A DNA stretch of 64,000 nt from an uncultured Flavobacteriaceae bacterium (GCA_963835675.1 CAWIGH010000005.1:271874-335873); one strand, 5' to 3'. Shown: positions 4,924-23,314, numbered from the stretch's first letter. Made by a program: numbers and translations. Notes: a model not told the origin generated them from the sequence alone.

Positions 4924-4974
4924 CCCGCCTGCCACTATAAATATTTATTGAGGCGGGCAGGGGCGTTGTTGTGC
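4924..4974 (-). repeat. Terminal attC-like half-site S0 containing a 38-bp nested REP-like insert (4924-4961)
   Basis: Host TATA|GGCGTT-GTTGTGC; insert CCCG-CCTGCC-ACT-[ATAAATATTTATTGAGGCG]-GGCAGG, also present at 12582 and 18013. Confidence 0.7.
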
Positions 4975-5033
4975 TTTCGTGCTTTTCTCATCCTTTTCAT
5001 TTATGAAACGAACAGATGTTTATCAATATCTAA

Positions 5034-5441
5034 TTATTCTTTATCAAACCCATCAACAATGACTCCTCCCATAGATGCAGGAAAACCGAGTATTATTATT
5101 CTTTTCAAGGCAATTATGGGTTCGTCTAAAATTGGCATTCTGTTAAGTGCAAATAGAACAATAAAAACGATAATAAGGGCAATTCCATAATCAATAATGA
5201 TTCGTAAAACGAAATGGGATAATCTGTGCTTTATTTGTCCTTGAAATATTCCTTGAATAGAGTATAAACTTATAAATAATAACGATAAAAAAACTAGTAC
5301 TATTACATTAAGTAATGGTAACGTTTCGCTAAGTCTCCAAGATTCTTCTGAGAATGCTACAGGAACAGTCAATGCAGAGGACCCAACTATTACCTGAACA
5401 ATATCTTCTGTGTTGATAGATTTTTTGAAAGATTTAATCAT
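5034..5441 (-). CDS. DUF2391 / TIGR02587-like membrane protein (cassette C16)
   Basis: EDIVQVIVGSSALTVPVAFSEESW...FPASMGG; hydrophobic helices. Confidence 0.75.
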   Translation of the reverse strand: MIKSFKKSINTEDIVQVIVGSSALTVPVAFSEESWRLSETLPLLNVIVLVFLSLLFISLYSIQGIFQGQIKHRLSHFVLRIIIDYGIALIIVFIVLFALNRMPILDEPIIALKRIIILGFPASMGGVIVDGFDKE

Positions 5442-5539
5442 TTTTATTTATACAATTTACGCAACTGTTTGTATTAAACATTTAATATTTCTTGCATGAA
5501 GCCCAATGGTTTGTAAGTGGTTAGTTTCGGAAAATCCGA

Positions 5540-5560
5540 CTTGCCACGCCAAAGGCGTGG
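5540..5560 (+). repeat. 21-nt REP-like unit (leader + hairpin)
   Basis: CTTG-CCACGCC-AAA-GGCGTGG in the loop of the AAAATCC/GGATTTT sub-hairpin. Confidence 0.75.
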
Positions 5561-5659
5561 TGGATTTTCCGACGTAGGGGCAAGTTAATTAATTCATGTG
5601 ACACGAGCAACGCGAACTGGCGCAAGCAATTTCCTGCGCGTAAATTAAGTAGCAATTAA

Positions 5660-5698
5660 CCTGCCTGCCGGTTTACCCGCCTCTGGAGGGCAGGCAGG
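5660..5698 (+). repeat. 39-bp nested REP-like composite, identical to 8877-8915
   Basis: CCTGCCTGCCGG-[TTTA-CCCGCC-TCT-GGAGGG]-CAGGCAGG inserted at AA|TTATA. Confidence 0.85.
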
Positions 5699-5765
5699 TT
5701 ATACACGTTGTCGGCAGTAGTACTTATAATTATTTAAATTTATACAACCAAGCAATAGCATTTTG

Positions 5766-7838: not shown

Positions 7839-7881
7839 TATTTATAATTTAGTGTTGTGTTTTTATTTTAAAGGGTATTAT

Positions 7882-7988
7882 TGCCAACGTTTGGGCTCGT
7901 ATGTTTTTCCGATGAGAAATCAAGCGGGTTAAATATACTAAACTTTGGTGTTTCACAAAACCACAATAGATTATAGCCATTGTTAGCT
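7882..7988 (-). repeat. attC-like site S2 (107 bp)
   Basis: TGCCAAC...GTATG ... TTATAgccatt-GTTAGCT; shares GAGAAATCAA.CGGGTTAAA with S3. Confidence 0.8.
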
Positions 7989-7992
7989 ATAG

Positions 7993-8736
7993 TTATTTTG
8001 AAATTAATTCATCCAATTTGGCTTTTAACTCAGGGACTGTATGTTTTATATTACGCGTTTCAGACACTTCTAACTTTATTCCATTTGAAATAAAATTTAT
8101 AATGCCATTTTTGTCTACTAATAAAATTTTTGGATAGCTCTCTGGCTTGAAAGTATTCTTTAATAGTTCCTCTTGATCTGTTATAATATCAAAATCAAAT
8201 GGTTTCCTTTTTAAGAAGTCAATTACCTTAGTTTTAGAATCGAATGTTATCGCAATGAAATTAGCATTCGAGTCATATTCAGCTTTTAGTTTATTTAGCT
8301 CTGGAATTTCCTTTAAACAAGGTGTGCAGTTGACAAACCATAAGTTGATAAATGTTACTTTTCCCTTAAGTATTTTATTATTTATTTTGATGTTAGTTAG
8401 TGTTATCAAATCTAAATCAGGCAATTCTTCGTTTTGTAAATTAAAAATTGCATCTCTCTTATAATCAACTTTTCTTAAATCCAAACTTAGTTTGACAAAA
8501 GTTATAGTTGAATCATTACGAGTGATTGTATTTCCTAATTCGTAACTAACACTCTTAGCGATAAATCCATATTTTTCAACGGAAGTCTTGTTGTAATTGT
8601 CTTTTGTTTTATTTAAAAACACTTGAATACTATCCTTGTCTGATAGTATTCTCTCAGTACCCTCGATTTGAAAATACTCTTGAGATATCAAAATTGATGT
8701 AAATAAGGCAAAACAAATGCATGCAATCTTTTTCAT
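7993..8736 (-). CDS. TlpA-family thiol-disulfide oxidoreductase (C14)
   Basis: LKGKVTFINLWFVNCTPCLKEIPELN (CxxC), YPKILLVDKNG. Confidence 0.88.
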   Translation of the reverse strand: MKKIACICFALFTSILISQEYFQIEGTERILSDKDSIQVFLNKTKDNYNKTSVEKYGFIAKSVSYELGNTITRNDSTITFVKLSLDLRKVDYKRDAIFNLQNEELPDLDLITLTNIKINNKILKGKVTFINLWFVNCTPCLKEIPELNKLKAEYDSNANFIAITFDSKTKVIDFLKRKPFDFDIITDQEELLKNTFKPESYPKILLVDKNGIINFISNGIKLEVSETRNIKHTVPELKAKLDELISK

Positions 8737-8783
8737 AATTATAGCTAACGTTAGAGCTATGGTTTCGTTGCGGGATCGTCCGT

Positions 8784-8804
8784 CCCGCCGTGCTTTGGCG
8801 TGGG
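8784..8804 (+). repeat. 21-nt REP-like unit
   Basis: CCCGCCGTGCTTTGGCGTGGG between GTCCGT and AGGAC. Confidence 0.7.
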
Positions 8805-8876
8805 AGGACTATTCCGCTGAGAAATCAAACGGGTTAAAGATATAAATATTTAAGATAGAGTAAAAGCCATGCTGAA

Positions 8877-8915
8877 CCTGCCTGCCGGTTTACCCGCCTC
8901 TGGAGGGCAGGCAGG
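8877..8915 (+). repeat. 39-bp nested REP-like composite
   Basis: Exact copy of 5660-5698, again at AA|TTATA. Confidence 0.85.
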
Positions 8916-8944
8916 TTATAGACATTGTTATAGCCAGTTATTTT

Positions 8945-9754
8945 TCATTTATTATTGTAATTTTTCCAAAATTCTTCACATCTTTCTTTTTCGGCTTGTT
9001 TTAAAATTGTAAAACCTAGTTCAATTGCTTTATAAAAATCATCACAGGCTTTCATTTTTTCTCCGACCTCATATAAAGCCAATCCACGAAGAAAGTAAGC
9101 ATTTTTATTATTTGGGTCTAACGATATTGCTTTATTACAATCAAATACTACTCCGTTCAAGTCATTTGGAAATCTAGTTCCAGCCCTGTTTACATAAACT
9201 CTTGCGTTTAAAGTGTCTTTTAATAAATATTTATCAAAATCATCTTTTGCCAGTTTGGTCATACCTGTTGCTAAATATATCCTTGCTCTATTTAAATATG
9301 ATTCAGGTTCTGGCGATTTTGATATTTCATCATCAAGAGTCTTTAAAAGATTATCGAAATCAGGTCTTGTCCAAAATCCCATAGTAGTTTTTATCCTTCC
9401 ACTACAATCGTCATCGATTAAGTCAAAAGAGACATAGTAATCTGTTAGATAAACCTTGTACTGCCCATAGCCTTTGCACATTTGCCCTTCTTTATCAATA
9501 AATTTGATTGTATCTCCTGACAATTCATATGTTGCAATAACATCTACGGTTTGGTCATTTCCAAAATCGCCTGCGATCAATCCGTTGTCTTTAAACTCAA
9601 AGCCGATTGGACCAGTTTGTCCGATCCTTACCCACTTACCAATTAGCGTATTTTCAGACTTTGTACTTGTCTTATTATTTTGCTTTTTACTAGAATTGCA
9701 GGCAAAAAAAATTCCACTTGAAAGGAGGATCAAAAAAAATAATTTTGTTTTCAT
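8945..9754 (-). CDS. TPR-containing lipoprotein (C13)
   Basis: Lipobox FFAC; TPR motifs (YLNRARIYL, AYFLRGLALY, ACDDFYKAIELG). Confidence 0.8.
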   Translation of the reverse strand: MKTKLFFLILLSSGIFFACNSSKKQNNKTSTKSENTLIGKWVRIGQTGPIGFEFKDNGLIAGDFGNDQTVDVIATYELSGDTIKFIDKEGQMCKGYGQYKVYLTDYYVSFDLIDDDCSGRIKTTMGFWTRPDFDNLLKTLDDEISKSPEPESYLNRARIYLATGMTKLAKDDFDKYLLKDTLNARVYVNRAGTRFPNDLNGVVFDCNKAISLDPNNKNAYFLRGLALYEVGEKMKACDDFYKAIELGFTILKQAEKERCEEFWKNYNNK

Positions 9755-9798
9755 CTTTATCTTTTTTTTTGTTTGACAATGCTGCTTTTTAAAATTGG

Positions 9799-9914
9799 AT
9801 ATAACATTGTTGTATAAGATTAGTTGCGTGTTTTAAGCGACTAATTTAGCAAATACAAACCGAATAGACACGAGCGTAGCGAACTGGCGTAAGCAATTAT
9901 AGCCAGTGTTAGCC
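9799..9914 (-). repeat. attC-like site S4 (116 bp)
   Basis: ATATAAC-attgttGTATAAG ... TTATAgccagt-GTTAGCC. Confidence 0.82.
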
Positions 9915-9972
9915 TATCGTTATTATGTTCAAGTTTAGTTAAAAATTCTAATTATATAGTTTATGAATGTAA

Positions 9973-10743
9973 TTACATTGTTAATGTGAGTCCGCCATCT
10001 ACAGTAAGCGTTGAGCCAGAAATATAACTGGATTCATCTGAACAAAGAAACACAATAGCATTTGCAATCTCTTCCGGGCGACCAATTCGTTGTAAATGTA
10101 CGGTAGGAAGCAGTCCTTTATCGTACAAGTCGTCACCAACAATACCTCTCAGGCGTTGGTGCATAGGTGTTTCAGTAATACCCGGACATAAAAGGTTTAC
10201 TCTAATGCCCTTAGGTCCTAATTCGGCAGAGACACTGGTCGTTAATCCAATAAGACCGTGTTTAGATGTTACATAGGCCGATCCGGTTGGAAAACCGAGA
10301 AATGAATTCACTGAGCCTATATTCACAATTGCACCACCCAAACCAAGTTTAAGCATGGCTCTGGCCTCATATTTCATGCAAAGAAATGTTCCCTTTAAGT
10401 TGATGTCAAGAACCTGATCCCAATCATCTTCAGCAAGGTCAGTTATTCCATTTAGTTTTCCTTCAATACCGGCATTATTTATTGCATAATCCAAACGGCC
10501 AAATACTTCGATAGTATGAGCGACCATTTGCTCTACGCTTTTAGCAATCGAAACATCGGTCTTGATTGCAGACGCCTTGCCACCCTTTGCTTCAATAGAA
10601 GCTACTAAGCTATCAAGTTTCTCTTTTCGACGTGCTGCGACTACTACACTTGCACCATTCGCTGCAAAAGCTTCGGCAGTAGCTCTTCCAATACCACTAC
10701 TTGCTCCAGTTATAAGTACGACTTTTTCTTTCATATTACTCAT
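9973..10743 (-). CDS. SDR-family NAD(P)-dependent oxidoreductase (C12)
   Basis: TGASSGIG, NNAG, YVTSK. Confidence 0.92.
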   Translation of the reverse strand: MSNMKEKVVLITGASSGIGRATAEAFAANGASVVVAARRKEKLDSLVASIEAKGGKASAIKTDVSIAKSVEQMVAHTIEVFGRLDYAINNAGIEGKLNGITDLAEDDWDQVLDINLKGTFLCMKYEARAMLKLGLGGAIVNIGSVNSFLGFPTGSAYVTSKHGLIGLTTSVSAELGPKGIRVNLLCPGITETPMHQRLRGIVGDDLYDKGLLPTVHLQRIGRPEEIANAIVFLCSDESSYISGSTLTVDGGLTLTM

Positions 10744-10814
10744 TTGATTTCTTTTTAATTGGTTAGTATAATTTAAAATATTTTATCGTTGGTTTTTTGG
10801 TTGGTCATAATGTT

Positions 10815-10865
10815 GGCTAACGTGTTTGTGTATGATTTCGTTGCGCCTGCCTGCCGCAGGCAGGC
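10815..10865 (-). repeat. Truncated attC-like site S5 (one arm only) ending in a 19-nt REP-like unit (10846-10864)
   Basis: GGCTAAC-gtgtttgtGTATG-atttcgttgcg-[CCTG-CCTGCC-GCA-GGCAGG]; no TTATA...GTT arm follows. Confidence 0.72.
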
Positions 10866-10870
10866 TTTCG

Positions 10871-11206
10871 TTATCTTTCACTACTTGAACTCTTTGCACT
10901 CAATTCGTTTTTCAAATCTAATTGAAGTTTTTTGTTTGCCATTAAAAGATCTTCAAGCGCTGTTATGGCCCATGATGTTTTAATGCCTAAATCAAACAAC
11001 ATTTGATCTAACTCCACATTACCGTACTGTTCTTTTAGTTTGGGGTAGGACAAAATATTTTTTTCTCTGAGTTTATAATAATTTAGTTGATAATTATTAA
11101 ATAATTCTCTTGCATCATTGATTCCATTTTTTGCTAAAAATGGTTTTAATCAATCTTCTTTGAAACCCCATAACGGTTCAGAAGCGTCACGTACAAAAAT
11201 TTCCAA
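10871..11206 (-). pseudogene. Gene remnant with an in-frame TGA (11150-11152) and no clear start
   Basis: Frame continues upstream of ORF 10871-11053: LEIFVRDASEPLWGFKED*LKPFLAKNGINDARELF... Confidence 0.55.
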
Positions 11207-11207
11207 T

Positions 11208-12344
11208 CTAAATTAACTGATATACCATTATCTTCTTTTCTTTCCCTTTAACACTTACCTCCCCCCAGGGTTTTGTTGAAATAATTGCTTTGGTTTTTTT
11301 ATAAATGGATTCACTTATTAGAATGGCATTGGAAAGATCTGAGGTCAATGCTTCTATCCTTTTTGCTGTGTTTACAACATTACCGGTAATTGCATAGGTA
11401 AGTCTATCATCAGAACCAAGGTTTCCGGCTATTATTGGACCATAATTTAATCCAATACCTATTGTAATTTTCTCCGGTAAAATATCCTTTAAGTCCTTAT
11501 TGATCTCTTCCAGCTTTTTTATCATTTCGATTGCACAATAAGCGGATGAAATTTCAGGATCTTTAATTGGTAAGGGAGCGCCAAAAGTAGCGAAAATTTC
11601 GTCACCCGTAAATTGATTTATGACTCCATTGTGCATTTTAATTACATCTGCCATCTTTGAATAATACGTATCAAGTATGCGTACTACCTCTATAGGATTC
11701 AATTTTTCCACAATCGGGGTAAATCCTCTAATATCACAAAAAAGTAGTGCCACATTCAACTTGACACCTTCCTTAATGTCTTTTTTGTTATCAGCAATAG
11801 CGTTTTTTACGATCGACTCTGGAACATATTTCACAAATAGATCTAACGTTTTTTTCTGTTTTTCTGTCAGAGAAAGAAGTTTGGTATTTGCTTGTTCGAT
11901 TTCTTTGATTCGTTTTAATTCCCTTTTTCTTGCCTTCTCCAGTCTGTTTTCGATCTTAACATTTTCAGTTATATCATTCTGAACAGCCAGCAACTGATCG
12001 AGTTCTCCATTGATATCAAATACTGGGGCAATAGACCACTCCATATAAAATTCAGTTCCATCCTTTTTGTAATTAATTGTCTTCCCTTTCCATGCTTCTC
12101 CGGTATCGAGGATTTCCCCTAAATTTCGAAAGATATTTAGGTTTGTTTTAGAGCCTTGCAGAATTCTTGGACTTTTACCGATTACTTCCTCTCTGCTCCA
12201 ACCCGTCATTTCTTCAAAAGCTTTATTGACATAAATAATATAGGGCCCGGGAGAATCAAGTTCTGTAGTAGTAATCAATATACTTTGAGTCATTGCCTCT
12301 AATAATTTGATGGTGTTATATGAATATGGTTCTGGATTGTGCAT
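11208..12344 (-). CDS. PAS-domain class III nucleotide cyclase (C11)
   Basis: PAS (YVNKAFEEMTGW, IGKSPRILQG, NYKKDG) + coiled coil + FCDIRGFT, FTGDEI, GNVVNTAKRIE. Confidence 0.88.
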   Translation of the reverse strand: MHNPEPYSYNTIKLLEAMTQSILITTTELDSPGPYIIYVNKAFEEMTGWSREEVIGKSPRILQGSKTNLNIFRNLGEILDTGEAWKGKTINYKKDGTEFYMEWSIAPVFDINGELDQLLAVQNDITENVKIENRLEKARKRELKRIKEIEQANTKLLSLTEKQKKTLDLFVKYVPESIVKNAIADNKKDIKEGVKLNVALLFCDIRGFTPIVEKLNPIEVVRILDTYYSKMADVIKMHNGVINQFTGDEIFATFGAPLPIKDPEISSAYCAIEMIKKLEEINKDLKDILPEKITIGIGLNYGPIIAGNLGSDDRLTYAITGNVVNTAKRIEALTSDLSNAILISESIYKKTKAIISTKPWGEVSVKGKEKKIMVYQLI

Positions 12345-12453
12345 TGACTGTCAACTTATAATTTTTTGAACAAATAATCCTTGTTTTATATATTGAAATA
12401 TTCCATGGGATACAACGTGTTTGTGTATGGTTTAGCTTCGCTCGTCTGTTTCG

Positions 12454-12472
12454 CCTGCCTGCCACTGGCAGG
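12454..12472 (+). repeat. 19-nt REP-like unit
   Basis: CCTG-CCTGCC-ACT-GGCAGG. Confidence 0.8.
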
Positions 12473-12553
12473 TGTTTAAGCAACTAATTTAGCAAACATT
12501 TCACAAATAGAAAATTCCAGCAGAATTTTCGAAAGTAGGCTAGAACCAAGTAA

Positions 12554-12572
12554 CTTGTCCGCCTCTGGCGGA
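12554..12572 (+). repeat. 19-nt REP-like unit
   Basis: CTTG-TCCGCC-TCT-GGCGGA at AA|TTAATTATA; homolog at 17985-18003. Confidence 0.8.
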
Positions 12573-12581
12573 TTAATTATA

Positions 12582-12619
12582 TCCGCCTGCCACTATAAAT
12601 ATTTATTGAGGCGCGCAGG
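12582..12619 (+). repeat. 38-bp nested REP-like composite
   Basis: TCCG-CCTGCC-ACT-[ATAAATATTTATTGAGGCG]-CGCAGG at TTATA|CAC. Confidence 0.8.
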
Positions 12620-12658
12620 CACGTTGTGTGCATTGGCTTTTCTATTGTCTTCTTTAAG

Positions 12659-13138
12659 TTATTTCTTTTTATCAGAAAACCAAGTATCTCTTAAAATTTT
12701 CCATTTCCCATCATCCTTTTTCCAAACCAATAAATATCTTCCACTACCAACTATTGTTCCATCGGTTTTAGACCAAATTCCTGTTCCGTCTTCCACAAGT
12801 AACTGTTCATTTCCCCATAATTTTGTGGTTTTAAAACTTGAGCCAGTTGTACCACCTTTAATCATTTTTCCAAAAACTTTAGTAATATTTTCTCTACCCA
12901 CTATAGATGGTATTATTTCGGCATCTTCCATATACATATTCCCTAAAGCAATTGAGTCTCCGTTTTTCAAATGACTTTCAAATTCCCGCAGACGTAATTC
13001 AATTTCTTTTTCAAGTTTAGAGATATTAGGTTCAGTATTTATTATCTTTTCTTCTGTTTTTTGTTCACAACCGAAAGTAAAAATCGATAATATTAAAATT
13101 AGAGATAGTCGAATTGCATTTGTTTTTAGTTTTTTCAT
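12659..13138 (-). CDS. NTF2-like / DUF4440 lipoprotein (C10)
   Basis: Lipobox TFGC; GRYLLVWKKDDGKWKILRDTW. Confidence 0.82.
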   Translation of the reverse strand: MKKLKTNAIRLSLILILSIFTFGCEQKTEEKIINTEPNISKLEKEIELRLREFESHLKNGDSIALGNMYMEDAEIIPSIVGRENITKVFGKMIKGGTTGSSFKTTKLWGNEQLLVEDGTGIWSKTDGTIVGSGRYLLVWKKDDGKWKILRDTWFSDKKK

Positions 13139-13159
13139 TGTAATTTTCGGATTAGATTG

Positions 13160-13313
13160 ATTTAACGGTTTCGGTTATGAGTAGTTGCGTGGGTTAGCAC
13201 TTAACTTTGCAAGAACGCACCAAACTGAAAATCCGTCCCGCCACGCTTTTTTAGCGTGGGAGGATTTTCAGAAGTAGGCGAGAACAAGCAATTACTTATG
13301 GCCATTGTTGGCA
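13160..13313 (-). repeat. attC-like site S7 (154 bp) with a REP-like insert at 13237-13260
   Basis: ATTTAAC-ggtttcgg-TTATGAGTAGTTGC ... GCAATTACTTATGG-ccatt-GTTGGCA. Confidence 0.85.
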
Positions 13314-13354
13314 ATAGTTTTATTTTTTAATAATATCACTTTCTCATAGAATTA

Positions 13355-14986: not shown

Positions 14987-15019
14987 TTGTATTTTAAATT
15001 AAATGTGTGGTTTAATTAT

Positions 15020-15145
15020 TGCCAACGTGTTTGTGTATGGTTTACCTTTGGTGATTATTCTCCCAAGCTTGTTTTTGTTTAACATCATTTTGTTTCAAAA
15101 TTAAGCTAAAATAGATTTGTTTTTTAACTCAGTTCTTTGTTGTGG
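15020..15145 (-). repeat. Internally collapsed attC-like site S8 containing a ~94-bp palindromic insert shared with S10
   Basis: TGCCAAC-gtgtttgtGTATG ... GTTGTGG; the TTATA inner arm is missing. Confidence 0.65.
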
Positions 15146-15195
15146 GCAGTTCATTCTCACTTTATTTCGTTTAGTATAAATTCAATTAACCTTGT

Positions 15196-15618
15196 CTATT
15201 TAAGCCAACCTTTTTTAGTGGCTCTTTTACTATAGAAATAAAGAAATGTTGCTATCGCAATAACTACAATAGGAATAATAGCGTAAAATACAATTGAGGT
15301 TTTTTTAATGTCAAAAATAAGTAGCCAATAAAATTCTATAAAAAGCAAAGAAATTAATGATATTGCAAAAAATTTAGAAGCAATTTTTTTTCTCATAAAA
15401 AGCATAAAACTGCCTATCATCTCAGAAAATAAAGCAAATAAAAATACAACCATATACCAAAAAGGAATTGACTGTATTTTCTCGAATTCTTCGGTAGTTG
15501 AATATTTTTGTAGAAAATCAATTTCATAAGAACTAAAGTAAATTTCAATTATATTCCACAAAAGAGCAAAAATGGCTACGAGCCAAAAGGAAGTCGGTGG
15601 TTTAATATCTAGTCCCAT
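15196..15618 (-). CDS. Small multi-pass membrane protein, unknown function (C8)
   Basis: KPPTSFWLVAIFALLWN; four hydrophobic segments. Confidence 0.75.
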   Translation of the reverse strand: MGLDIKPPTSFWLVAIFALLWNIIEIYFSSYEIDFLQKYSTTEEFEKIQSIPFWYMVVFLFALFSEMIGSFMLFMRKKIASKFFAISLISLLFIEFYWLLIFDIKKTSIVFYAIIPIVVIAIATFLYFYSKRATKKGWLK

Positions 15619-15753
15619 AATAAAAAGATTAATTTAGTGTATCATAAAGATAACTAACTTATTGAGGATTTTGATAAAATAATATTTTCGTTAGTTAAAT
15701 TCAAGTGCTAAGCGCAACTTTTTCATTATTTTTTTATTTCTTTTAATTTAATG

Positions 15754-16548
15754 TCAGCCAAATGCAGCTCTCTTTGCGTGCTGCACGTTTGTAAAGACCT
15801 GATCGAGATAAAATTCATCTTTCAAGATGCCATTTACACGCTCTGCGATGGCATTCTCGTAGCAATGGTTTTCTTCAGTCATACTAATATCTATCTTATT
15901 TCTTTTAAGTATTTGAGTGTATACATTGCTGCAATACTGTATTCCTCTGTCTGAATGATGAATAAGTTGTTTAATATTCTTGGATTGATAAATGGCTTTA
16001 TTAAGCGCTCTAACGCATCCTTTAAGTTCTAAACTATCACTAAGGTCATAACCTACAATCTTTCTAGAATACATGTCTGTAATGAGCTCGAGATAACAAA
16101 ATCCTTTTACGGTTCTTATATAGGTAATATCAGATGCCCAAACTTGGTTAGGCCTTGTAATATCTAAATCTTTAATGATGTTTTTATACTTGTAGAACCT
16201 GTGCAACGAATTGGTTGTTCTGGCACTGTATTTCTTTCTAAGTGTTAGCATTTGATGTTTTCTAAGGACATTAAATAACGTGTCTCTACCGACTTTAAGA
16301 TTGGCTTTGGTAAACTCATCTTCCAATGATATCTTAAGTTTCCGCACGCCTTCTCGAGGAAGGGATCTGCGTCTTTTCATTACAATTTCTATAATTTGTT
16401 GTTCTAATTCTAAACGTTTATCAGCTCTAATTTTGTACTTATAATAAGCATCGCGTTTAAGTCCAAAACAATGGGTTATAGTAGATAAAGAAGCAAATCC
16501 CTTAGATTTCTCTTTGGCTTTGATTAAGGCTTTATGCTTAGCTTTTTT
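15754..16548 (-). CDS. IS3 OrfB DDE transposase, C-terminally truncated
   Basis: WASDITY, HHSDRGIQY, NAIAERVNGILK; ends prematurely ...HAKRAAFG*. Confidence 0.85.
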   Translation of the reverse strand, partial: KKAKHKALIKAKEKSKGFASLSTITHCFGLKRDAYYKYKIRADKRLELEQQIIEIVMKRRRSLPREGVRKLKISLEDEFTKANLKVGRDTLFNVLRKHQMLTLRKKYSARTTNSLHRFYKYKNIIKDLDITRPNQVWASDITYIRTVKGFCYLELITDMYSRKIVGYDLSDSLELKGCVRALNKAIYQSKNIKQLIHHSDRGIQYCSNVYTQILKRNKIDISMTEENHCYENAIAERVNGILKDEFYLDQVFTNVQHAKRAAFG

Positions 16549-16934
16549 TTTAGTTCGGCAACAGATTTGTAGCCTAGGTCTTCTGCCGCTACTTCCAGGT
16601 ATGAATCTAATACCAAGGCATCCAGATCTTTTTTTAAGAGTAGCTTTTTAAGCTGTTCAATCTCTTTTTGCAGTGCCTTAATCCGAGTTATTTCGTCTTT
16701 TGTTTCCACTTTTAATCTGGTGTTCATTAGGTCTTTACGATTGTACTTTCTAATCCATTCATTAATGGTCGTGAGAGCAATACCATAAAGTTTTCCTAAC
16801 TGATTCTTGTTTAGTTTTCCTGTACTAATTTCGTCTAAAATTTTTAATTTGAAAGGTTCGCTGTACCGTCTAATTACTTTGTCATTTTTATACATAATGT
16901 TTAAAATTATGTAGCCTTTATTCAGGACGGGTCA
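15763..16934 (-). mobile_element. IS3-family insertion sequence, 3'-truncated (only one inverted repeat)
   Basis: End reads TGACCCGTCCTGAATAAAGGCTACA on the minus strand from 16934; orfA/orfB in -1 relation; no matching IR near 15750. Confidence 0.9.
16524..16895 (-). CDS. IS3 OrfA (HTH)
   Basis: RRYSEPFKLKIL...TTINEWIRKY; A9G run at 16542-16551 contains the A-AAA-AAG -1 frameshift motif. Confidence 0.85.
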   Translation of the reverse strand: MYKNDKVIRRYSEPFKLKILDEISTGKLNKNQLGKLYGIALTTINEWIRKYNRKDLMNTRLKVETKDEITRIKALQKEIEQLKKLLLKKDLDALVLDSYLEVAAEDLGYKSVAELKKKLSIKP

Positions 16935-16941
16935 AAATTAG

Positions 16942-17071
16942 CCACAACGGTACGTATATGCTACGTGCCGTCGTGATTGAATTTAGTACCGTTAAAATTA
17001 ATCTTTTTCGTGTATAATTAAACTATCATTTTATGAACCTAAATCAGCATGGAGCATATATATTGTTGTAG
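16942..17071 (-). repeat. attC-like site S9 (130 bp)
   Basis: CCACAAC-ggtacg-TATATGCT ... AGCATATA-tatt-GTTGTAG. Confidence 0.82.
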
Positions 17072-17083
17072 GGCGTATTTATC

Positions 17084-17521
17084 TTATTTAAATTCATAAA
17101 TAACTTTGTTTTTAACAATCTTCTTTACAAATAACCAAACGAATAAAGATATTACTCCACCGATTAAAGTCCCATAAATATCTTTCCAGTCAAATACTCC
17201 ACGAGGCAAATAGGGTTGCAAAATTTCATAAAGAATATATCCAATCACAACAAAACCAATTACACGAAATACTTTCTTTCTTGGTGAGTTCAATATTGCC
17301 AACATGAAAAATATTTGAACGATTATTCCTCCCGAATTTCCGATACTATCAGCAATTCCATAATCATCAATGTTGTTTGTATAAATATATGGTCTATAAA
17401 TGTTTCTCCCGATCTCGGTCAAAAAGAAAAATAAAACTGCAATCAAGAAATAAATAATCCTTTTACTATCAATCGTTTTTATTGATGCTTTATCTGTAAA
17501 AAAGTTATTATTATTTTCCAT
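17084..17521 (-). CDS. Membrane protein with a weakly VanZ-like C-terminus (C7, gene 2)
   Basis: Four TM segments; YEILQPYLPRGVFDWKDIYG. Confidence 0.65.
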   Translation of the reverse strand: MENNNNFFTDKASIKTIDSKRIIYFLIAVLFFFLTEIGRNIYRPYIYTNNIDDYGIADSIGNSGGIIVQIFFMLAILNSPRKKVFRVIGFVVIGYILYEILQPYLPRGVFDWKDIYGTLIGGVISLFVWLFVKKIVKNKVIYEFK

Positions 17522-17563
17522 TTTTTGACTTCTAATAAACTCTTTTTAAGAATTATGAATCTC

Positions 17564-17746
17564 TTATTTTTGCTTTTCAACAACAAGGATATAATCAATT
17601 TTCGCTGTTGCCCCCATTAGTTGAAAAGTTGGACGAACATTAGGGATTATTGAAACAACTTCTCCACCAAGTTTATTTAAATATTGCTCTAATTTTTCTT
17701 GCATGTTTTCATTTTTGACCTCAATTCTATGTACTTTGTATTTCAA
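17564..17746 (-). CDS. 60-aa hypothetical protein (C7, gene 1)
   Basis: ATG start ~40 bp after the S10 core; protein-like composition. Confidence 0.65.
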   Translation of the reverse strand: MKYKVHRIEVKNENMQEKLEQYLNKLGGEVVSIIPNVRPTFQLMGATAKIDYILVVEKQK

Positions 17747-17782
17747 ATTATATATTTTATGGTTAAAGTTCTTCTATATGCC

Positions 17783-18063
17783 ATACAACGTGTTTGTATA
17801 TGGTTTAGCTTCGCTGATTATTCTCTCAAGCTTGTTTTAGTTTAGCATCATTTTGTTGCAAAATGCTGAACAAAAATCAGCTTGTTTCAATAGTTTTTTT
17901 GTGGTTAAGCAACTAATTTAGTAAACAAAAACGTGCCAGAGAAAATTCCGAAGGAATTTTCCGAATAAGCACTTGCCAAAGCAACCTGTCGGCCTTTGGC
18001 GGATTAATTATACCCGCCTGCCACTATAAATATTTATTGAAGCGGGCAGGCACGGTGTTGCCC
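17783..18063 (-). repeat. attC-like site S10 (281 bp) with ~90-bp palindromic insert (17815-17904), 19-mer (17985-18003) and 38-mer (18013-18050)
   Basis: ATACAAC-gtgtttGTATATG ... TTATA[insert]cacggt-GTTGCCC. Confidence 0.8.
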
Positions 18064-18126
18064 ATTGTAGTTTTTTTATTTTGAAAATATTTTTTTATTT
18101 TTATTTTATAATTAAAATTCTGTGTC

Positions 18127-18486
18127 ATGAGAAATCACATTTTATTTGCTCTTTTTATAATTATGTTTTCAGGTGTTATTTATTCTCAAAGTTCTAATTC
18201 AAGTATAAAAATTGGAGATGTTTTTGTTATAGGTGAAGTTTACAATAATAATTATAAACATATTAATTTCCCAAGAGCTAACTTCATTATAAAAAAAGGA
18301 GGAATTGCCAATTACAATAATGTTAAAGATAAAAAGGTCGAAGTTACGTCAATTAAAGAGAAGAAAGATGGTAGATTAATTGCTACTATTAAATTGGCTT
18401 CTAATAAATTCTTTTTTAACAGCCACAAATATGTAACTGTTGAAATTAGTGAAGCAATTAGTCAAAAAGAATTATTAAGAATTTGA
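18127..18486 (+). CDS. Secreted hypothetical protein, inverted relative to the array (inside C6)
   Basis: Signal peptide; HINFPRANFIIKKGGIANY; stop lies 2 bp from the convergent gene's stop. Confidence 0.8.
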   Translation: MRNHILFALFIIMFSGVIYSQSSNSSIKIGDVFVIGEVYNNNYKHINFPRANFIIKKGGIANYNNVKDKKVEVTSIKEKKDGRLIATIKLASNKFFFNSHKYVTVEISEAISQKELLRI

Positions 18487-18488
18487 GT

Positions 18489-19538
18489 TTATTTATTAAG
18501 TTTAATAAATTCATATGTTTTCTCACTTAAGTTTAGAATGACGTGATAACTTCCTGATTTAACCTTAATATTGTCGCCATAGAAATAGGTGTTACCAAAA
18601 GGAAATTCATCTCCTCCCCAATTAAAATTCCAATTTTCACCTTCTCTGAATTTAAGCGAACCGTCGGATAAAATGATATCTCCCTCCCAGATTGCCTTTG
18701 ATTCATTAGTTAATGTAAGAGGAAAGTTTTTGGTCCAGTTATTATGTTGAGTTGCATCTCCTACAAGCCCAATATTTGAATAAAGTAATTTAACCTTTGG
18801 ATAATAGTCTTGAATCAAGCGTTTATTAGTATTTGTTAAGTTGATGATATTATCTATGAAAATCAAACTCGTAAATTTTATACTTCTTGATGATTTTAGA
18901 GCGTTTTGAAACGTAGAACTCTCAAGTAGTTTGAGGGTACGTTTGATATCGCTATCATCAAAAAAGGTAGAATCCATATTTTGATAATCATTTAATGCAG
19001 AATAACCAAAAGTAATGCTTGGATAGGGTAAATTCAATTCATCTAAAAATGATGTGATATCTTTCCTACTGCCATTATAACCTTCCTTAATCGCTTTACC
19101 GTATGAAGAAAGGCTCTTGTTTAAATTACTCTGCTTTTGATTTTTAGGGTTGAATTTAAGGTAACCCAAAAGATATGAAATTTCAGAGTTTAAATCAGAA
19201 GGTTCTAAATCCAAGTAAAACAATAAATGCGGTAGCAATTTATTATTTATGCCTTCAGGATTCTGAACTATGTTATCTATAATTTCTATCTGTTTTGATA
19301 CTTGACGTCTAATTAGAGTAAGATTTTCTGAATCTTGGTCTATGACAGTATACATTTGTTGTAAAACAGCCTTAAATTCATCATTGGTTTTCCTTGATTC
19401 GTTCCAGTTGTTTAATTGTAGGGCAATCAAAATTCCGATTACTACAAGAAAAATTTCGCCTAAAGCATATTTAAAATACTTTCCAGTTTTGTTTTCCATG
19501 AGCAAGTTTTGGCGAATTTTTCTAAAGAATTTTATCAT
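18489..19538 (-). CDS. DUF6090-type membrane-anchored protein with C-terminal SusE/SusF-like beta domain (C6)
   Basis: MIKFFRKIRQ...KYALGEIFLVVIGILIALQLNNWN; C-terminal LKFREGENWNFNWG...SGSYHVILN. Confidence 0.75.
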   Translation of the reverse strand: MIKFFRKIRQNLLMENKTGKYFKYALGEIFLVVIGILIALQLNNWNESRKTNDEFKAVLQQMYTVIDQDSENLTLIRRQVSKQIEIIDNIVQNPEGINNKLLPHLLFYLDLEPSDLNSEISYLLGYLKFNPKNQKQSNLNKSLSSYGKAIKEGYNGSRKDITSFLDELNLPYPSITFGYSALNDYQNMDSTFFDDSDIKRTLKLLESSTFQNALKSSRSIKFTSLIFIDNIINLTNTNKRLIQDYYPKVKLLYSNIGLVGDATQHNNWTKNFPLTLTNESKAIWEGDIILSDGSLKFREGENWNFNWGGDEFPFGNTYFYGDNIKVKSGSYHVILNLSEKTYEFIKLNK

Positions 19539-19562
19539 TGGTTAGCGGTTTCTGATAATGAA

Positions 19563-19757
19563 GCACAACGGTTTAGCTATGAACAGTACGGGAGCAAACT
19601 AGCGTTTGCTTTCCGCCACGCACATAGCGAAATCTTTTTGTTTTGTTTTTTCTTTTTTTGTTTAAAGCAAAATCCCAAAGATTTTGCGGACTTCATAAAA
19701 ATACGCAAACCCTACGAATAAGCCCGAAACCCGTATTGTTTATAGGTTGTGTTATAT
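19563..19757 (-). repeat. attC-like site S11 (195 bp)
   Basis: GCACAAC...TATGAACAGTACGGG ... CCCGTATTGTTTATA-ggttgt-GTTATAT. Confidence 0.85.
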
Positions 19758-19769
19758 GGCGTTATTATT

Positions 19770-20387
19770 TTATTTCAAAAACGGTATTGCAGGTAAATAC
19801 CAACTTTGTTTTCCCTTTTTTATCCTTATATAATTTTTAAATATTAATATAAGATTATATAAATAAAGAATTCCTGTAAGAACAACATAGATTATTTCTT
19901 TATCCATTCTAAAATTGATTAAGGATAATACTATATCAAAAAGGTTAAAATCAAATTTAATATATGAACCTTTTGTTGCTACCATAAAAATGGAATATAT
20001 CAACAAAGTCCAAGTAATCTGAAAACTGATTATTTTTTTTCCATAATTGTCTACAAATTTTATTTTGTCTTTTTTCAAAATCCACATTACTAATGGGATT
20101 ATTATTCCTAATAATGGATTAAATAATAGACCTGTTAAGGCACTTAAGTTCAAAAGAGTCAGATATCCTTTATCTTCAATATCTGTCCATTCTAAAAGGT
20201 CGTCTGGAGTTACTCCAAGAGCTTGTGTTAATTTTATCAACGTATCGCCTCTCGGGATTGATTCGCCTTTTTCAATTCGTTGAACTGTTCTTAGGCTTAA
20301 TTTTGATTCTTCCGATAATTGCTCTTGAGAAAATCCTTTTCGGCTTCGTAAGTCTTTAATTTTAATTGCTAAGTTTTGATTATTCAT
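19770..20387 (-). CDS. XRE-family HTH regulator fused to a DUF4870-like membrane domain (C5)
   Basis: IKDLRSRKGFSQEQLSEESKLSLRTVQRIEKG; LGIIIPLVMW...GKKIISFQITW. Confidence 0.85.
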   Translation of the reverse strand: MNNQNLAIKIKDLRSRKGFSQEQLSEESKLSLRTVQRIEKGESIPRGDTLIKLTQALGVTPDDLLEWTDIEDKGYLTLLNLSALTGLLFNPLLGIIIPLVMWILKKDKIKFVDNYGKKIISFQITWTLLIYSIFMVATKGSYIKFDFNLFDIVLSLINFRMDKEIIYVVLTGILYLYNLILIFKNYIRIKKGKQSWYLPAIPFLK

Positions 20388-20413
20388 TTTGGACTATTTT
20401 AATGATTACTCAG

Positions 20414-20472
20414 CAAAGATATTTTTATGTTGTTCTAGTTGTTGCGTCATTATTATGTCAATCTTATGACAT
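20414..20472 (-). promoter_or_regulatory. Cassette-internal promoter and palindromic operator
   Basis: Perfect Bacteroidota -7 box TATCTTTG (minus, 20414-20421); ATGTCA-n6-TGACAT palindrome at 20455-20472. Confidence 0.65.
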
Positions 20473-20497
20473 TTCTGCCAGTGTTCGGCTTAAATGC

Positions 20498-20630
20498 AAA
20501 TAACGGTCTCGTATAACCGTCAGTTACGGGATTAAAGTTAATAATTTTCGTTTTGGCACTGACCTTAGTAATTCCGAGTGGATTCGGACGTAGTCGAATC
20601 CGCCGTAATTGCGGTTATACATTGTTGGCA
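20498..20630 (-). repeat. attC-like site S12 (133 bp)
   Basis: AAATAAC-ggtctc-GTATAACCG ... CGGTTATAC-att-GTTGGCA. Confidence 0.87.
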
Positions 20631-20670
20631 ACAGGCTTTTTATCATTTCTATAATTAGAGTTTTCAACTT

Positions 20671-21339
20671 TTAATCATTATTTGGTCTTTCAGGAATGTA
20701 AACAAGATCAATTTCGATATCATTTCCATATTTAACAATCATAGAACATAGGACAGAGACACTTTTTCCATTGTTAATAGCGGGCTTCATTATCGGCATT
20801 TTTCTAAGCACTCTCAAAATTTCAGCTTGAATGGTTACTTCCGCATCTCTGACTTTCATGCCGGTTAAATTTCCGTTTTCAGTGATTATAAAAAAGGCTT
20901 CAACCTTTTTTGGTTCTGAAAGATTTAATTCTTTCAATAAACTCAAGTTAAATTCACGCTTTACAAATGCCGCTACTTTTTCATTGAAACATTCTCTTGT
21001 TTGTTCTATTGAGAGTTCCTCACAACCATTATATACTGGGGCAATTTCTACATCTTTTAATATCATACTATTGTCAGTAGTATAATTAGCTAAACCGTCA
21101 TCGTGAGATACAATGCTACATAAACTTAATAAAGCCTGTTCCTCTATTTCTGTCATATTTCCTTGTGCCATCACTTGTTCCTGAACAGCATTTATTTTCG
21201 TTATTAAATCACTTTCTGTGTTTTTTACCGAGTTGGATTCTTCCTTACAAGAAAAGCATAATAGAACAATAAAAATGGTTGAAACGACCATTAAATTTTG
21301 TGATTTAAATTTTGTTTTACGATTAAATTTGTATTTCAT
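20671..21339 (-). CDS. Lipoprotein with a TonB C-terminal-like domain (C4)
   Basis: Lipobox CFSC; APVYNGCE, FIITENGNL, LRVLRKMPIMKPAINNGKSV. Confidence 0.7.
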   Translation of the reverse strand: MKYKFNRKTKFKSQNLMVVSTIFIVLLCFSCKEESNSVKNTESDLITKINAVQEQVMAQGNMTEIEEQALLSLCSIVSHDDGLANYTTDNSMILKDVEIAPVYNGCEELSIEQTRECFNEKVAAFVKREFNLSLLKELNLSEPKKVEAFFIITENGNLTGMKVRDAEVTIQAEILRVLRKMPIMKPAINNGKSVSVLCSMIVKYGNDIEIDLVYIPERPNND

Positions 21340-21362
21340 AATTTTTTGGTTTTTCAGCTTGT

Positions 21363-21493
21363 TGACAACGGTTTTGTGTATGAGCAGTAGCAGATTTAAG
21401 CAACTACTTTTCGGGATACAAGATAATTTAATTTAATGAAATAGCGGTTCAGGTTGACACCCAAACCGCTATTGCTTATACACGTTGTTTTGC
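21363..21493 (-). repeat. attC-like site S13 (131 bp)
   Basis: TGACAAC-8nt-GTATGAGCAGTAGC ... GCTATTGCTTATAC-5nt-GTTTTGC. Confidence 0.87.
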
Positions 21494-21532
21494 AACGTTT
21501 TTTATAAATTCTTTCTACTTATTTTTATTAAA

Positions 21533-22300
21533 TTAATCTTTATTAAAAGTTACTTTACCTGTTTCCATATCATAAAGAGCAGATATAATCATAATTTCTC
21601 CATTATCTTCCATCTTTGCCATTGTTGGTGATTGCTCTCTTATATTTTTTACAGTACGCATCGCATTGTTGTTGATAACAAGGTCTGTAAATTCAGCATT
21701 TTTGGTAGAGCGCTCACCATCGAATTCAGTTTCATTTACAGCTGGTTGTATTTCATCGATTAGGTCTGCAAGAGAGTTCATACCTAATGCTTTAGCATCA
21801 ACTTCATCAATAGTAGATTTGACTGCACCACAGGCCGTATGTCCCATTACAATGACTACTTTAGAACCAGCTACAGCAGTAGCAAATTCCATTGAGCCAA
21901 CGATATCAGCATTTTCAATATTACCTGCGACACGTGCTACGAAAATATCACCTATGCCTAAATCAAATACATCTTCTACAGGTACACGACTATCTACGCA
22001 CGAAAGAACAATAGCTTTAGGGTATTGGCCTATCATCGCTTTTCTACGTTGTGCTGAATGGTCGCGTTGGGTTAGATTATTATTTATAAAATTCTCATTA
22101 CCCTTTTTTAAACGCCCAATGATTTCTTGAGGTGTCATTTCAGCTTGTTCTTCAGCTGTTAATATACTCTCAACAACCTTTTCTTCAACAAGTTCTGTTT
22201 GTGAATTTTGTGCTGTTGGTTCTTGTTTTTTTGTTTCCTGACAAGATGTTAAAAATAATAGTGTCAAGAAAGTGGTCAATGGTAAAAATAGTTTTCTCAT
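21533..22300 (-). CDS. Beta-class carbonic anhydrase, lipoprotein (C3, gene 2)
   Basis: Lipobox LTSC; SCVDSRVP, RVAGN, GHTACGAV. Confidence 0.93.
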   Translation of the reverse strand: MRKLFLPLTTFLTLLFLTSCQETKKQEPTAQNSQTELVEEKVVESILTAEEQAEMTPQEIIGRLKKGNENFINNNLTQRDHSAQRRKAMIGQYPKAIVLSCVDSRVPVEDVFDLGIGDIFVARVAGNIENADIVGSMEFATAVAGSKVVIVMGHTACGAVKSTIDEVDAKALGMNSLADLIDEIQPAVNETEFDGERSTKNAEFTDLVINNNAMRTVKNIREQSPTMAKMEDNGEIMIISALYDMETGKVTFNKD

Positions 22301-22324
22301 ATGTTTATAGTTTAAAGTGAAAAT

Positions 22325-23023
22325 TTATAGTGTGTGGTGTAGGCTAAATTGTAATTGTCCTTTTTGCCAATTAGTGGTGGTCTGCTCCATCCATCCGAAT
22401 TGTAATCTCAAATTGTTCTTTAATGCATAACCAATACCTAAATAGGTTCTGTTTCGGTCAAAAAACTCAACATTACGCCCATTACCAATATTACGCTCTC
22501 CATTAATAAATAACTCATTATAAAATGCGAAATATGGCGTGCCTTTAGCTAAGGTTGTTCCTTTGAATGGAACATTTACGAAGAGGTTGTAACGATAGCG
22601 TGTTCTAAAATCTTGATTTTCCACCCATCTTTGTTCATAACGAAACCTATGTGTTAATAAAAGTCTTTTAAGAATTGTATTTGAGAACAAGGCTTCTTGA
22701 TATATACGATTTTCAGAAACAGGATTATCTATATCAGCACCGAACTGTCCTGTTGTAATATTGGCAAAACCAAGCGTGAATTTAACTCCTGAATCTGATG
22801 GTTTATATGTTAAACCAGACCGTAACAGTAACTGTTCCCTATCTCCGAGTCCTCGCCAATCACGGTATTGAAAATCTCCCTGAACTCCCCAATTAGATTC
22901 TTTGAAAGTTGTATTATAAAAATACATATACCAAGCCCCTAATTGATTGTTATCTGGTTCTTGGGCATTAACTTGTAATAAAGTTAGCAAACTGATAGTG
23001 AAAGGTAAAAGGATTCTTTTCAT
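22325..23023 (-). CDS. DUF2490-family outer-membrane beta-barrel (C3, gene 1)
   Basis: GAWYMYF, QLLLRSG, HRFRYEQRW, FDRNRTYLGIGY. Confidence 0.85.
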   Translation of the reverse strand: MKRILLPFTISLLTLLQVNAQEPDNNQLGAWYMYFYNTTFKESNWGVQGDFQYRDWRGLGDREQLLLRSGLTYKPSDSGVKFTLGFANITTGQFGADIDNPVSENRIYQEALFSNTILKRLLLTHRFRYEQRWVENQDFRTRYRYNLFVNVPFKGTTLAKGTPYFAFYNELFINGERNIGNGRNVEFFDRNRTYLGIGYALKNNLRLQFGWMEQTTTNWQKGQLQFSLHHTL

Positions 23024-23103
23024 ATTGTTTAATGTTATTTGATAAAATTAAAACAAAAACAATACCGTAATTATATTGAGAACCGCATTTTAATAAAAAA
23101 TTA

Positions 23104-23137
23104 ACAGTATTACTTGTTGTGTTAATAGTGTTACTTT
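23104..23137 (-). promoter_or_regulatory. Two operator-like copies resembling the TetR palindrome at 26922-26934
   Basis: ACAGTATTACTTG (10/13) at 23104 and ATAGTGTTACTTT (11/13) at 23125 versus ATAGTATTACTAT. Confidence 0.5.
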
Positions 23138-23162
23138 CAATAAAGATGATTCACGAAATCTT

Positions 23163-23314
23163 GCACAACGTTTCTGTATATGATTTGTGCGGCTTAAAAT
23201 CCGTCCCGCCACGCCTTGGCGTGGGAGGATTTTCAGCTATTCAAATCAGATATTAAATATAATAGTTTTTAAATGATGTAGGAATGCAAGCATGAATTAT
23301 ATACGTTGTTGGCA
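23163..23314 (-). repeat. attC-like site S14 (152 bp) with a REP-like insert at 23205-23225
   Basis: GCACAAC-6nt-GTATATGATTTGTGC ... GCATGAATTATATAC-3nt-GTTGGCA. Confidence 0.87.

Follow-up and report, generated by a model that had tools for sequence, protein, structure and literature searches.

What are the short GC-rich hairpins that interrupt the recombination sites of an integron-like cassette array in an uncultured Flavobacteriaceae bacterium, and how did they come to be there? The array lies in a 64,000-nt stretch of the assembly GCA_963835675.1 (CAWIGH010000005.1:271874-335873; C5:271874-335873 in our contig numbering), which is called the window below. The source genome comprises 3.3 Mb at 34% GC in 7 contigs and is 96.9% complete, with a stated contamination of 2.4%. 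An initial annotation, made from the window alone, reported 13 insertions in eight attC-like sites. Exact string searches agree: 13 units of 19-39 nt occupy 8 of the 16 sites (Table 1), and uninserted alleles, both in the same genome and in relatives, identify them as insertions. The units form one family, very small and apparently undescribed. What is new is the invasion of recombination sites, the series of filled and empty sites across relatives, the enrichment figures and the polarity.

The family is united by its build, a C-Y-Y-G tetranucleotide (CCTG-like) followed by a hairpin whose stem ends in ...GCC / GGC.... Every unit folds alone (-2.7 to -12.4 kcal/mol with DNA parameters), which upholds the leader-plus-hairpin anatomy first proposed and gives the units the 20-40-nt stem-loop form of repetitive extragenic palindromes (REPs). 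Their GC content is 50-80%, compared with 34% for the genome. Three stem types are found: A (CCTGCC/GGCAGG), B (TCCGCC/GGCGGA) and C (CCACGCC/GGCGTGG). The core of type A is a 20-nt palindrome, (CCTG)2CC.GG(CAGG)2, so that its ‘leader’ is merely one further CCTG repeat; the unit at 10846, originally read as leader plus stem, is better taken as a symmetric 9-bp hairpin. The nesting noted earlier is real, since the centre of the 39-mer, an A palindrome, is occupied by a B-like hairpin, TTTA-CCCGCC-TCT-GGAGGG, and the 38-mer has an A/B-like stem enclosing an AT-rich loop. The three 38-mers start 1 nt later than first given (4925, 12583 and 18014), while the coordinates of the other ten units stand. 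The tetranucleotide belongs to the inserted DNA, as in an insertion of exactly CCTGTCGGCCTTTGGCGGA.

On the + strand the 16 sites start GCYAAC-GKKTT-TGTRTATGR and end TTATAS-MCRTT-GTTRGC, and five positions within a site are used: after GTTGCG of the left arm, in the loop that caps the GGAAAATCC hairpin, immediately ahead of L', at the boundary of L' with the spacer, and immediately after R', in the leader of the next cassette. The loop at 24345, GGAAAATCC-GTA-GGATTTTCC, is an empty target. Removing the units in silico leaves the pairing of the host arms unchanged at the three sites whose arms are paired in the minimum free energy structure (11 to 11, 13 to 13 and 11 to 10 pairs).

Deletion of each unit restores the backbone consensus AAGCAATTAnTTATAC-ACGTTGTTRGC, and homologous sites show the empty state. 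The loop of site s13158 reads AAAATCCGCGAGGATTTTC in 10 homologous sites of relatives from several genera and at C1:384.5 kb of the same genome; the window copy is 23 nt longer. Site s17780 has both a B unit and a 38-mer, in the order CCAAAGCAA (19 nt) TTAATTATAC (38 nt) ACGGTG, where eight homologues from relatives have CCAAAGCAA/TTAATTATAC/ACGTTG, that is CCAAAGCAATTAATTATACACGTTG, with both positions empty; at C1:387.9 kb of the source genome unit B is present and the 38-mer missing. The cassette leader GTTGTGC/TTTCGTTAT of relatives is interrupted by an A unit at C1:382213 and in the congener G016. In these comparisons of filled and empty alleles the junctions are exact and no target bases are duplicated, as first reported. 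The arrays of three relatives (G036, G057 and G002; about 30 attC arm hits) contain no GC-rich hairpins. The units are therefore not intrinsic features present in all orthologous sites, since homologous sites are empty in relatives.

The insertions differ in age. In common with the source genome, G016 has B, C and A units as well as a 38-mer that is partly deleted, so some insertions are older than the split between the two; others, such as that in s13158 with its many empty homologues, are younger. An old copy in decay lies at C4:104100 (C4:104100-104300), where a 39-mer with a left flank as in s8745 (..GCTATGCTGAA..) has mutated toward AT and its left arm is now ACTAACTACC. In site s10812 only a left arm is present, and an A unit joins it to a cassette leader, which suggests that the units also promote deletions: from its sequence it looks like a deletion between two A units, and its unit-leader junction (A unit plus CTTTCGTTAT) recurs at C1:382213 and in G016. 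The number of independent insertions can be given only as an estimate, and is lower than 13 because several copies have a common ancestor or may be products of copying from one attC site to another.

Enrichment was measured with a count of perfect GC-rich hairpins (stem of at least 6 bp, at least 75% GC, loop of 2-8 nt), of which there are 98 in the 3.3 Mb. Ten fall in the 5.4 kb of non-coding DNA in the window array, a density (1.84/kb) about 22 times that of other non-coding DNA (0.082/kb); a second array, on contig C1, has 0.71/kb, and coding DNA 0.015/kb. Most hits elsewhere in the genome are rRNA, tRNA or ordinary terminators, and the rest of the window has a single, terminator-like hairpin at 25478, so that no clear copy was indeed to be found in the window outside the array. 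The - strand is the sense strand of the cassettes, and the + strand, antisense to them, corresponds to the ‘bottom’ strand. All of the approximately 20 asymmetric copies in the source genome have one polarity, with the tetranucleotide 5' on the strand antisense to the cassettes, whether in the window, in the C1 array or at a lone site at C3:262 kb; they span at least 12 distinct positions by a hand count from printed sequences.

The core palindrome of type A, CCTGCCTGCCGGCAGGCAGG, also has copies in this genome away from the attC sites: within the loops of REP-like hairpins, beside both rRNA operons, adjacent to each 16S gene, and in tRNA-fragment-like sequence that lies upstream of tRNA genes. 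The arm CCTGCCTGCC of the 39-mer is the fourth commonest GC-rich 10-mer of the genome, with 31 occurrences, 6 of them in the window array. Among tandem REP-like hairpins at C1:511 kb, an empty AACCTCTCGACTGCG/CTCGAGGTGACA stands beside filled ones, whose insert is CCTGCCTGCCGGACAGGCTGG, CCCGATAGTTATCGGGA or a doubly nested unit. A search of the non-attC loci against Rfam matched only rRNA and tRNA. In no locus was there a convincing case of a longer element bounded by the 10-mer arms; C3:381.8-386.5 kb, considered as an ‘empty shell’ (a long cassette between such arms), was rejected on finding that its interior consists of ordinary genes. At C3:465200-466100, C4:418400-418700 and C4:450400-450700, two small GIY-YIG genes lie between repeated tRNA-Pro-like 5' fragments and the intact tRNA, and the fragment junctions carry GC-rich hairpins that include the 20-mer or a variant. 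Much of what the genome has in GC-rich islands and recurrent GC-rich 10-mers is found in C1:1-130000, which may be foreign DNA or a binning contaminant.

Beyond this genome, the exact 20-mer is found in more than 120 contigs, a lower bound, from Patescibacteria, Omnitrophota, Planctomycetota, Bacteroidota, Proteobacteria and others, where about one chance match is expected; named genomes with the element include Flavobacteriaceae genera. Among 401 Bacteroidota genomes it occurs in 36 (9%), representing 33 of 179 genera, with up to 20 copies, and a reversed control pattern in none. Viral sequences contribute 35 stretches from approximately 30 contigs. Forms like the 39-mer are present in other phyla (loci L033 and L118), as are B-like hairpins with CAGG or CAAG tails (L106 and L133). 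Over the whole set of GC-rich hairpins at the cross-phylum loci there is no general enrichment of the CCTG tag; only the TCCGCC-type hairpins show it. One phage contig (IMGVR_UViG_3300033148_008720; L185, 2239-2330) encodes a 92-nt tRNA-Met, called by ARAGORN, whose long variable arm is the exact 20-nt palindrome. At L162 and L192 the palindrome occupies tRNA-like variable-loop and D-loop positions in sequences that ARAGORN does not call. Insertion into intact tRNA genes was considered for four bacterial cases and rejected, as these are sequences resembling tRNA 5' fragments upstream of intact tRNAs. A literature search did not find the 20-mer; comparable elements were limited to work on REPs and mitochondrial palindromes. 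Because the units occur elsewhere in the genome, in many phyla and on phage contigs, the family is not a parasite of attC sites only.

The explanation that we favour, with moderate confidence, is that these are non-autonomous, REP-like mini-palindromes, mobilised in trans and fixed at unpaired positions of folding DNA, to which copying between attC sites has added further copies. Movement in trans is suggested because no enzyme can be named in the genome; the mobilising enzyme may have been lost from it. Fixation would occur where folded DNA leaves bases unpaired, at hairpin loops, at the junction of L' and the central spacer and at the base of the variable arm, either because folded single-stranded DNA is the substrate or because no other position takes a self-contained hairpin without harm. 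The shared polarity, antisense to the cassettes, favours a step specific to one strand. In the two arrays the 9-22-fold excess would probably have three causes: the many foldable targets; secondary copying between attC sites via conserved flanks (AAAATCCG...GGATTTTCAG; AAGCAA...TTAATTATAC...ACGTTG); and relaxed selection where the recombinase was lost, as may apply to the window array, where unit density exceeds that of the C1 array. Homology-assisted copying within arrays is supported by flanks and positions common to several copies and by units whose arms are identical but whose loops differ.

Several observations weigh against this explanation. No gene for a Y1/HUH enzyme (PF01797, RAYT) was matched in the source genome, with positive controls, contrary to the expectation in the initial annotation of such a transposase flanked by the same hairpins. 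Across the 401 Bacteroidota genomes Y1 genes are weakly associated with the 20-mer (32 of 36 carriers and 258 of 365 non-carriers), and one genome with 12 copies, G067, has none. Clustering of open reading frames (ORFs) within 1.2 kb of the 20-mer at 120 loci gave no recurrent protein family. The rule that the leader is leftmost on the + strand, true of all asymmetric copies in the window, is not absolute: one 39-mer is reversed in G016, the sole exception seen. A preserved orientation follows automatically from copying between sites, and copies with a common position and backbone (B, the 38-mer and the 39-mer at L') could stem from single events. Among 100 cross-phylum copies 18% lie within a flanking stem of at least 6 bp, usually abutting one arm, versus 6.1% of random positions, controls that included coding DNA; because the other 82% lie outside any obvious host palindrome, hairpin targeting is a tendency rather than a rule.

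A broader form of the proposal we put forward only tentatively, as having somewhat less than an even chance of being right. CCTG-tagged hairpins of 19-21 nt would be pan-bacterial, phage-borne and among the smallest mobile DNAs, and would be integrated, with strand specificity, at nucleotides left unpaired when single-stranded DNA folds (bottom strands of attC, loops of REP-like hairpins, and D and variable loops of tRNA genes); cassette arrays, in which foldable DNA is dense, would act as natural traps that record their activity, and the inserted hairpins would remodel or delete recombination sites.

The sole candidate for a gene flanked by units is a small GIY-YIG gene at C1:511.6 kb, amid hairpin arrays with nested A units; it is not a transposase. 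At this locus (L003, C1:510900-512300) REP-like hairpins of the form CCTCTCGAC-TGCG-CTCGAGGTGACA stand on both sides of the gene, accounting for 5 of the 25 copies in the genome. The same motif lies near 17 of 30 homologous GIY-YIG genes of relatives (loci L197-L225), with up to 9 copies in 3.3 kb, a layout resembling a REPtron with a GIY-YIG gene in place of the RAYT. As the mover of the units this nuclease was rejected: its homologues sit amid host REP-like palindromes and almost never amid CCTGCC units, and G016 is invaded and lacks a homologue. What the GIY-YIG gene is linked to are the host REP-like palindromes, not the CCTG units.

A possible, though on balance unlikely, alternative is that one or a few primary insertions were followed by spread without any transposase, by gene conversion or replication template-switching through short backbone flanks, together with duplication of attC sites onto new cassettes. 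The contexts are indeed stereotyped. B is always found as AAGCAA/B/TTAATTATA across different sites and the 38-mer as TTATAY/38/CACG, while the 39-mer is always followed by TTATAG or TTATAC (54 nt from 5658 and from 8875 are 96% identical). The C units of s13158 and s23160 have the same arms and different loops, both flanked by AAAATCCG...GGATTTTCAG. Copying would also keep orientation automatically, and s10812 resembles a deletion between two A units. It does not explain, however, units at different positions (A and the 39-mer occupy five or more), units in unrelated host palindromes, beside rRNA genes and upstream of tRNA genes, or the cross-phylum copies, and the first insertion must still come by another route.

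The initial annotation proposed a REP-like parasite specialised on attC sites and moved on single-stranded DNA by a Y1/HUH enzyme (TnpA-REP/RAYT) that recognises the leader tetranucleotide and hairpin. In that form we hold the proposal to be improbable. The proposal fits the tetranucleotide-plus-hairpin build, the 22-fold array enrichment, the uniform polarity and the knowledge that some REP families are regularly inserted within other small palindromes (PMC3733652); Y1 genes are present in 290 of the 401 genomes of the phylum, slightly more often among carriers of the 20-mer. The specialisation fails on the same units beside rRNA and tRNA genes and in REP-like loops, and on the genomes and phages where contexts are unrelated to attC. 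Against the enzyme stand the unmatched PF01797, the Y1-free genome with 12 copies and the search for unit-flanked genes, which yielded only the GIY-YIG gene. Nor does the tag, CCTG, CTTG or CCCG instead of GTAG or CGTC, identify the units as REPs.

That the hairpins are selected modules of the cassettes, serving as intrinsic terminators, RNA-stabilising hairpins or modulators of attC folding and recombination, is very unlikely. A GC-rich stem within an A-tract/T-tract host hairpin (AAAATCC...GGATTTT) does resemble a bidirectional terminator, and the units add 3-12 kcal/mol to the folded site. A terminator function was nevertheless rejected, for only 2 of the 13 units fit the pattern, both antisense to the genes, and terminator-like sites in the region are not above shuffled sequence (15 versus 10 +/- 4); related arrays work without such units, old copies decay toward AT, and units also occur in contexts that do not look transcribed and in tRNA or tRNA-like sequence (the phage tRNA-Met and several stretches resembling tRNA 5' fragments). 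Least credible of all is that the GC-rich segments are ancestral and the ‘empty’ sites deletion derivatives: B, and C of the s23160 family, are shared with G016 and so not recent, but the empty state is seen in 10-11 homologues from several genera with backbones approximately 85-90% identical to the filled site, base-exact deletions would be needed many times over, the composition is foreign to the genome, and identical units lie in unrelated DNA.

The units can be set beside several known systems. Yeast mitochondrial GC clusters and Rickettsia palindromic elements (RPEs, 100-150 bp) are tolerated in structured RNA genes and even in coding genes; like the units they are GC-rich or palindromic mini-insertions in AT-rich genomes with no known enzyme, but sizes, sequences and lineages differ and there is no sign of relatedness. 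The small dispersed repeats (SDRs) of Nostocaceae, described by Elhai and colleagues in 2008 (Genome Res), are reportedly precise insertions of approximately 21-27 nt, often nested and without target duplication; we know of no enzyme for them and of no reported link to integron sites. The likeness is one of behaviour only (very small, precise, nestable insertions, no target duplication, no known enzyme); the sequences and phylum differ, and the A unit crosses phyla, unlike SDRs, which occur in a single cyanobacterial group only. The IS1111-attC group of insertion sequences (ISs) and group IIC-attC introns are autonomous elements of approximately 1.3-2 kb, with a DEDD transposase or with a ribozyme and reverse transcriptase, and have one defined insertion point each. 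They share with the units a single orientation in attC and the exploitation of a conserved foldable site; the units differ in being 19-39 nt and non-coding, in using at least five positions per site and in not being restricted to attC. The targeting of attC by IS1111 has been reviewed (PMC11187229). Miniature inverted-repeat transposable elements, which are marked by terminal inverted repeats and a duplicated target site, differ from the units, which have no target-site duplication at filled/empty junctions and do not bound any longer element with their 10-mer arms.

REPs are the closest comparison. They are imperfect palindromes of 20-40 nt, and their superfamilies are defined by a terminal tag of four nucleotides, GTAG or CGTC (Di Nocera et al. 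2013, PMC3733652); REP, BIME and REPIN elements are mobilised by RAYT (TnpA-REP, Y1 HUH) transposases (Bertels & Rainey 2011, PMC3116915; PMC3733652). The units resemble them in being palindromic with a terminal tetranucleotide, non-coding and dispersed, and in the REPtron-like clustering of hairpins around a small nuclease gene at one locus. They differ in their ends (CCTG, CTTG or CCCG, or TTTA for the nested unit, with CGTC only where the target supplies CG), in lacking, in the source genome, a cognate RAYT/Y1 gene of the kind that REPs usually flank, in a copy number of tens rather than hundreds, in an identical 20-mer across phyla and phages where REP families are species- or genus-specific and restricted to extragenic DNA, and in lying inside recombination sites and tRNA(-like) sequence.

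The host array extends over 4.76-25.35 kb of the window, with its sites between 4.76 and 24.4 kb. The sites have the attC pattern, inverted cores RYYYAAC...GTTRRRY around an imperfect palindrome (approximately 60-150 nt or more), here GCYAAC and GTTRGC, with arms that pair in folds. In the ORF map single ORFs, all on the - strand, are separated by these sites, and one IS interrupts the array; the layout is that of an integron, with mostly single, promoterless ORFs in one orientation and in tandem, each with one site after it. No tyrosine recombinase gene lies in the window beyond a 20-codon remnant. The C1 array, of approximately 20 sites, is headed by an intact recombinase (375665-376624), with cassettes on the recombinase's own strand; because the head of the window array keeps only the last 20 recombinase codons and downstream sequence, at 92% identity, the window array is an integrase-deleted twin of the C1 array.

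One feature departs from classical integrons, in which an integrase (IntI) with an additional domain of its own adjoins the array, and a second may do so. The C1 recombinase scores 193 bits against TIGR02249, where the cut-off is 265, in a match split into two stretches, and it is nearer to XerA/XerC-like structures than to VchIntI4. In 12 of 15 sites the + strand is the one that folds more stably, and 2-3 extra unpaired bases adjoin the GCYAAC core on its 5' arm (e.g. at 21363-21493). In the canonical geometry (VCR and aadA sites) the extra-helical bases are on the R''-L'' arm of the bottom strand, which is the opposite arm.

Table 1. Inserted units, attC-like sites and array head in the window (positions from its first nucleotide)
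Feature	Position	Strand	Description
Unit, 38-mer, CCGCCTGCC-ACTATAAATATTTATTGA-GGCGGGCAGG	4925-4962	+	Between L' (..GTATAC) and spacer/R' of s4760
Unit, C-type, CTTG-CCACGCC-AAA-GGCGTGG	5540-5560	+	Apical loop of host hairpin GGAAAATCC/GGATTTTCC
Unit, 39-mer, arms CCTGCCTGCC/GGCAGGCAGG around GGTTTACCCGCCTCTGGAG	5660-5698	+	Directly before L' TTATAC
Unit, C-type, CCCG-CCGTGC-TTTG-GCGTGG	8784-8803	+	Inside host hairpin GCGGGATCGTCC/GGACTATTCCGC
Unit, 39-mer, identical to 5660-5698	8877-8915	+	Directly before L' TTATAG
Unit, A-type palindrome, GCCTGCCTG-CCG-CAGGCAGGC	10846-10864	none (symmetric)	Joins attC left arm to cassette leader CTTTCGTTAT
Unit, A-type, CCTG-CCTGCC-ACT-GGCAGG	12454-12472	+	Left half of s12408
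Unit, B-type, CTTG-TCCGCC-TCT-GGCGGA	12554-12572	+	Between AAGTAA and TTAATTATAT
Unit, 38-mer	12583-12620	+	Between L' (TTATAT) and spacer CACGTTG
Unit, C-type, CCCG-CCACGC-TTTTTTA-GCGTGG	13237-13259	+	Loop empty in 11 homologous sites
Unit, B-type, CCTG-TCGGCC-TTT-GGCGGA	17985-18003	+	Position empty in 8 homologous sites of relatives
Unit, 38-mer	18014-18051	+	Position empty in 8 homologous sites of relatives and at C1:387.9 kb of the source genome
Unit, C-type, CCCG-CCACGCC-TT-GGCGTGG	23205-23224	+	Loop of AAAATCC/GGATTTT; variants in same loop at C1:380.9 kb of the source genome and in G016
s4760	4761-4974	+	attC-like, last site of array, one unit
s5460	5459-5715	+	attC-like, two units
s8745	8743-8935	+	attC-like, two units
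s10812	10815-10875	+	Truncated attC-like: left arm only, fused through A unit
s12408	12410-12631	+	attC-like, three units
s13158	13160-13312	+	attC-like, one unit
s17780	17783-18063	+	attC-like, two units and AT-rich palindromic module of ~95 nt
s23160	23163-23313	+	attC-like, one unit
Eight unit-free attC-like sites	7882-24408 (span)	+	7882-7987, 9799-9914, 15020-15147, 16942-17074, 19563-19760, 20498-20629, 21363-21493, 24276-24408
Array head	25243-25350	-	attI-like sequence and last 20 codons of tyrosine recombinase; 92% identity to C1:376562-376669

An AT-rich palindromic module of approximately 95 nt (AAGCTTGTTTTAGTTTAGCATCATTTTGTTGCAAAATGCTGAAC...) lies in the left arm of three sites (15023-15101, 17786-17900 and C1:385.8 kb) and has no counterpart at homologous sites in relatives; it represents a second type of attC-site insertion. 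The IS within the cassette array has two ORFs (15754-16951); several congeners have copies approximately 80% identical to it, including four in G012.

Mobility is hard to prove for elements of such a size, and the sites described here supply clean filled/empty pairs for insertions of 19-39 nt. They show integron-type recombination sites to be open to colonisation and restructuring by mini-palindromes, and attC models and tools for finding cassettes that were trained on ‘clean’ sites will give the invaded ones a wrong size or overlook them. For a repeat family that crosses phyla and is carried by phages, the single polarity of copies in sites folding as single strands offers a clue, open to test, to how insertion happens. 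If the units alter folding near the junction of L' and the spacer, cassette mobility may be tuned or silenced by them.

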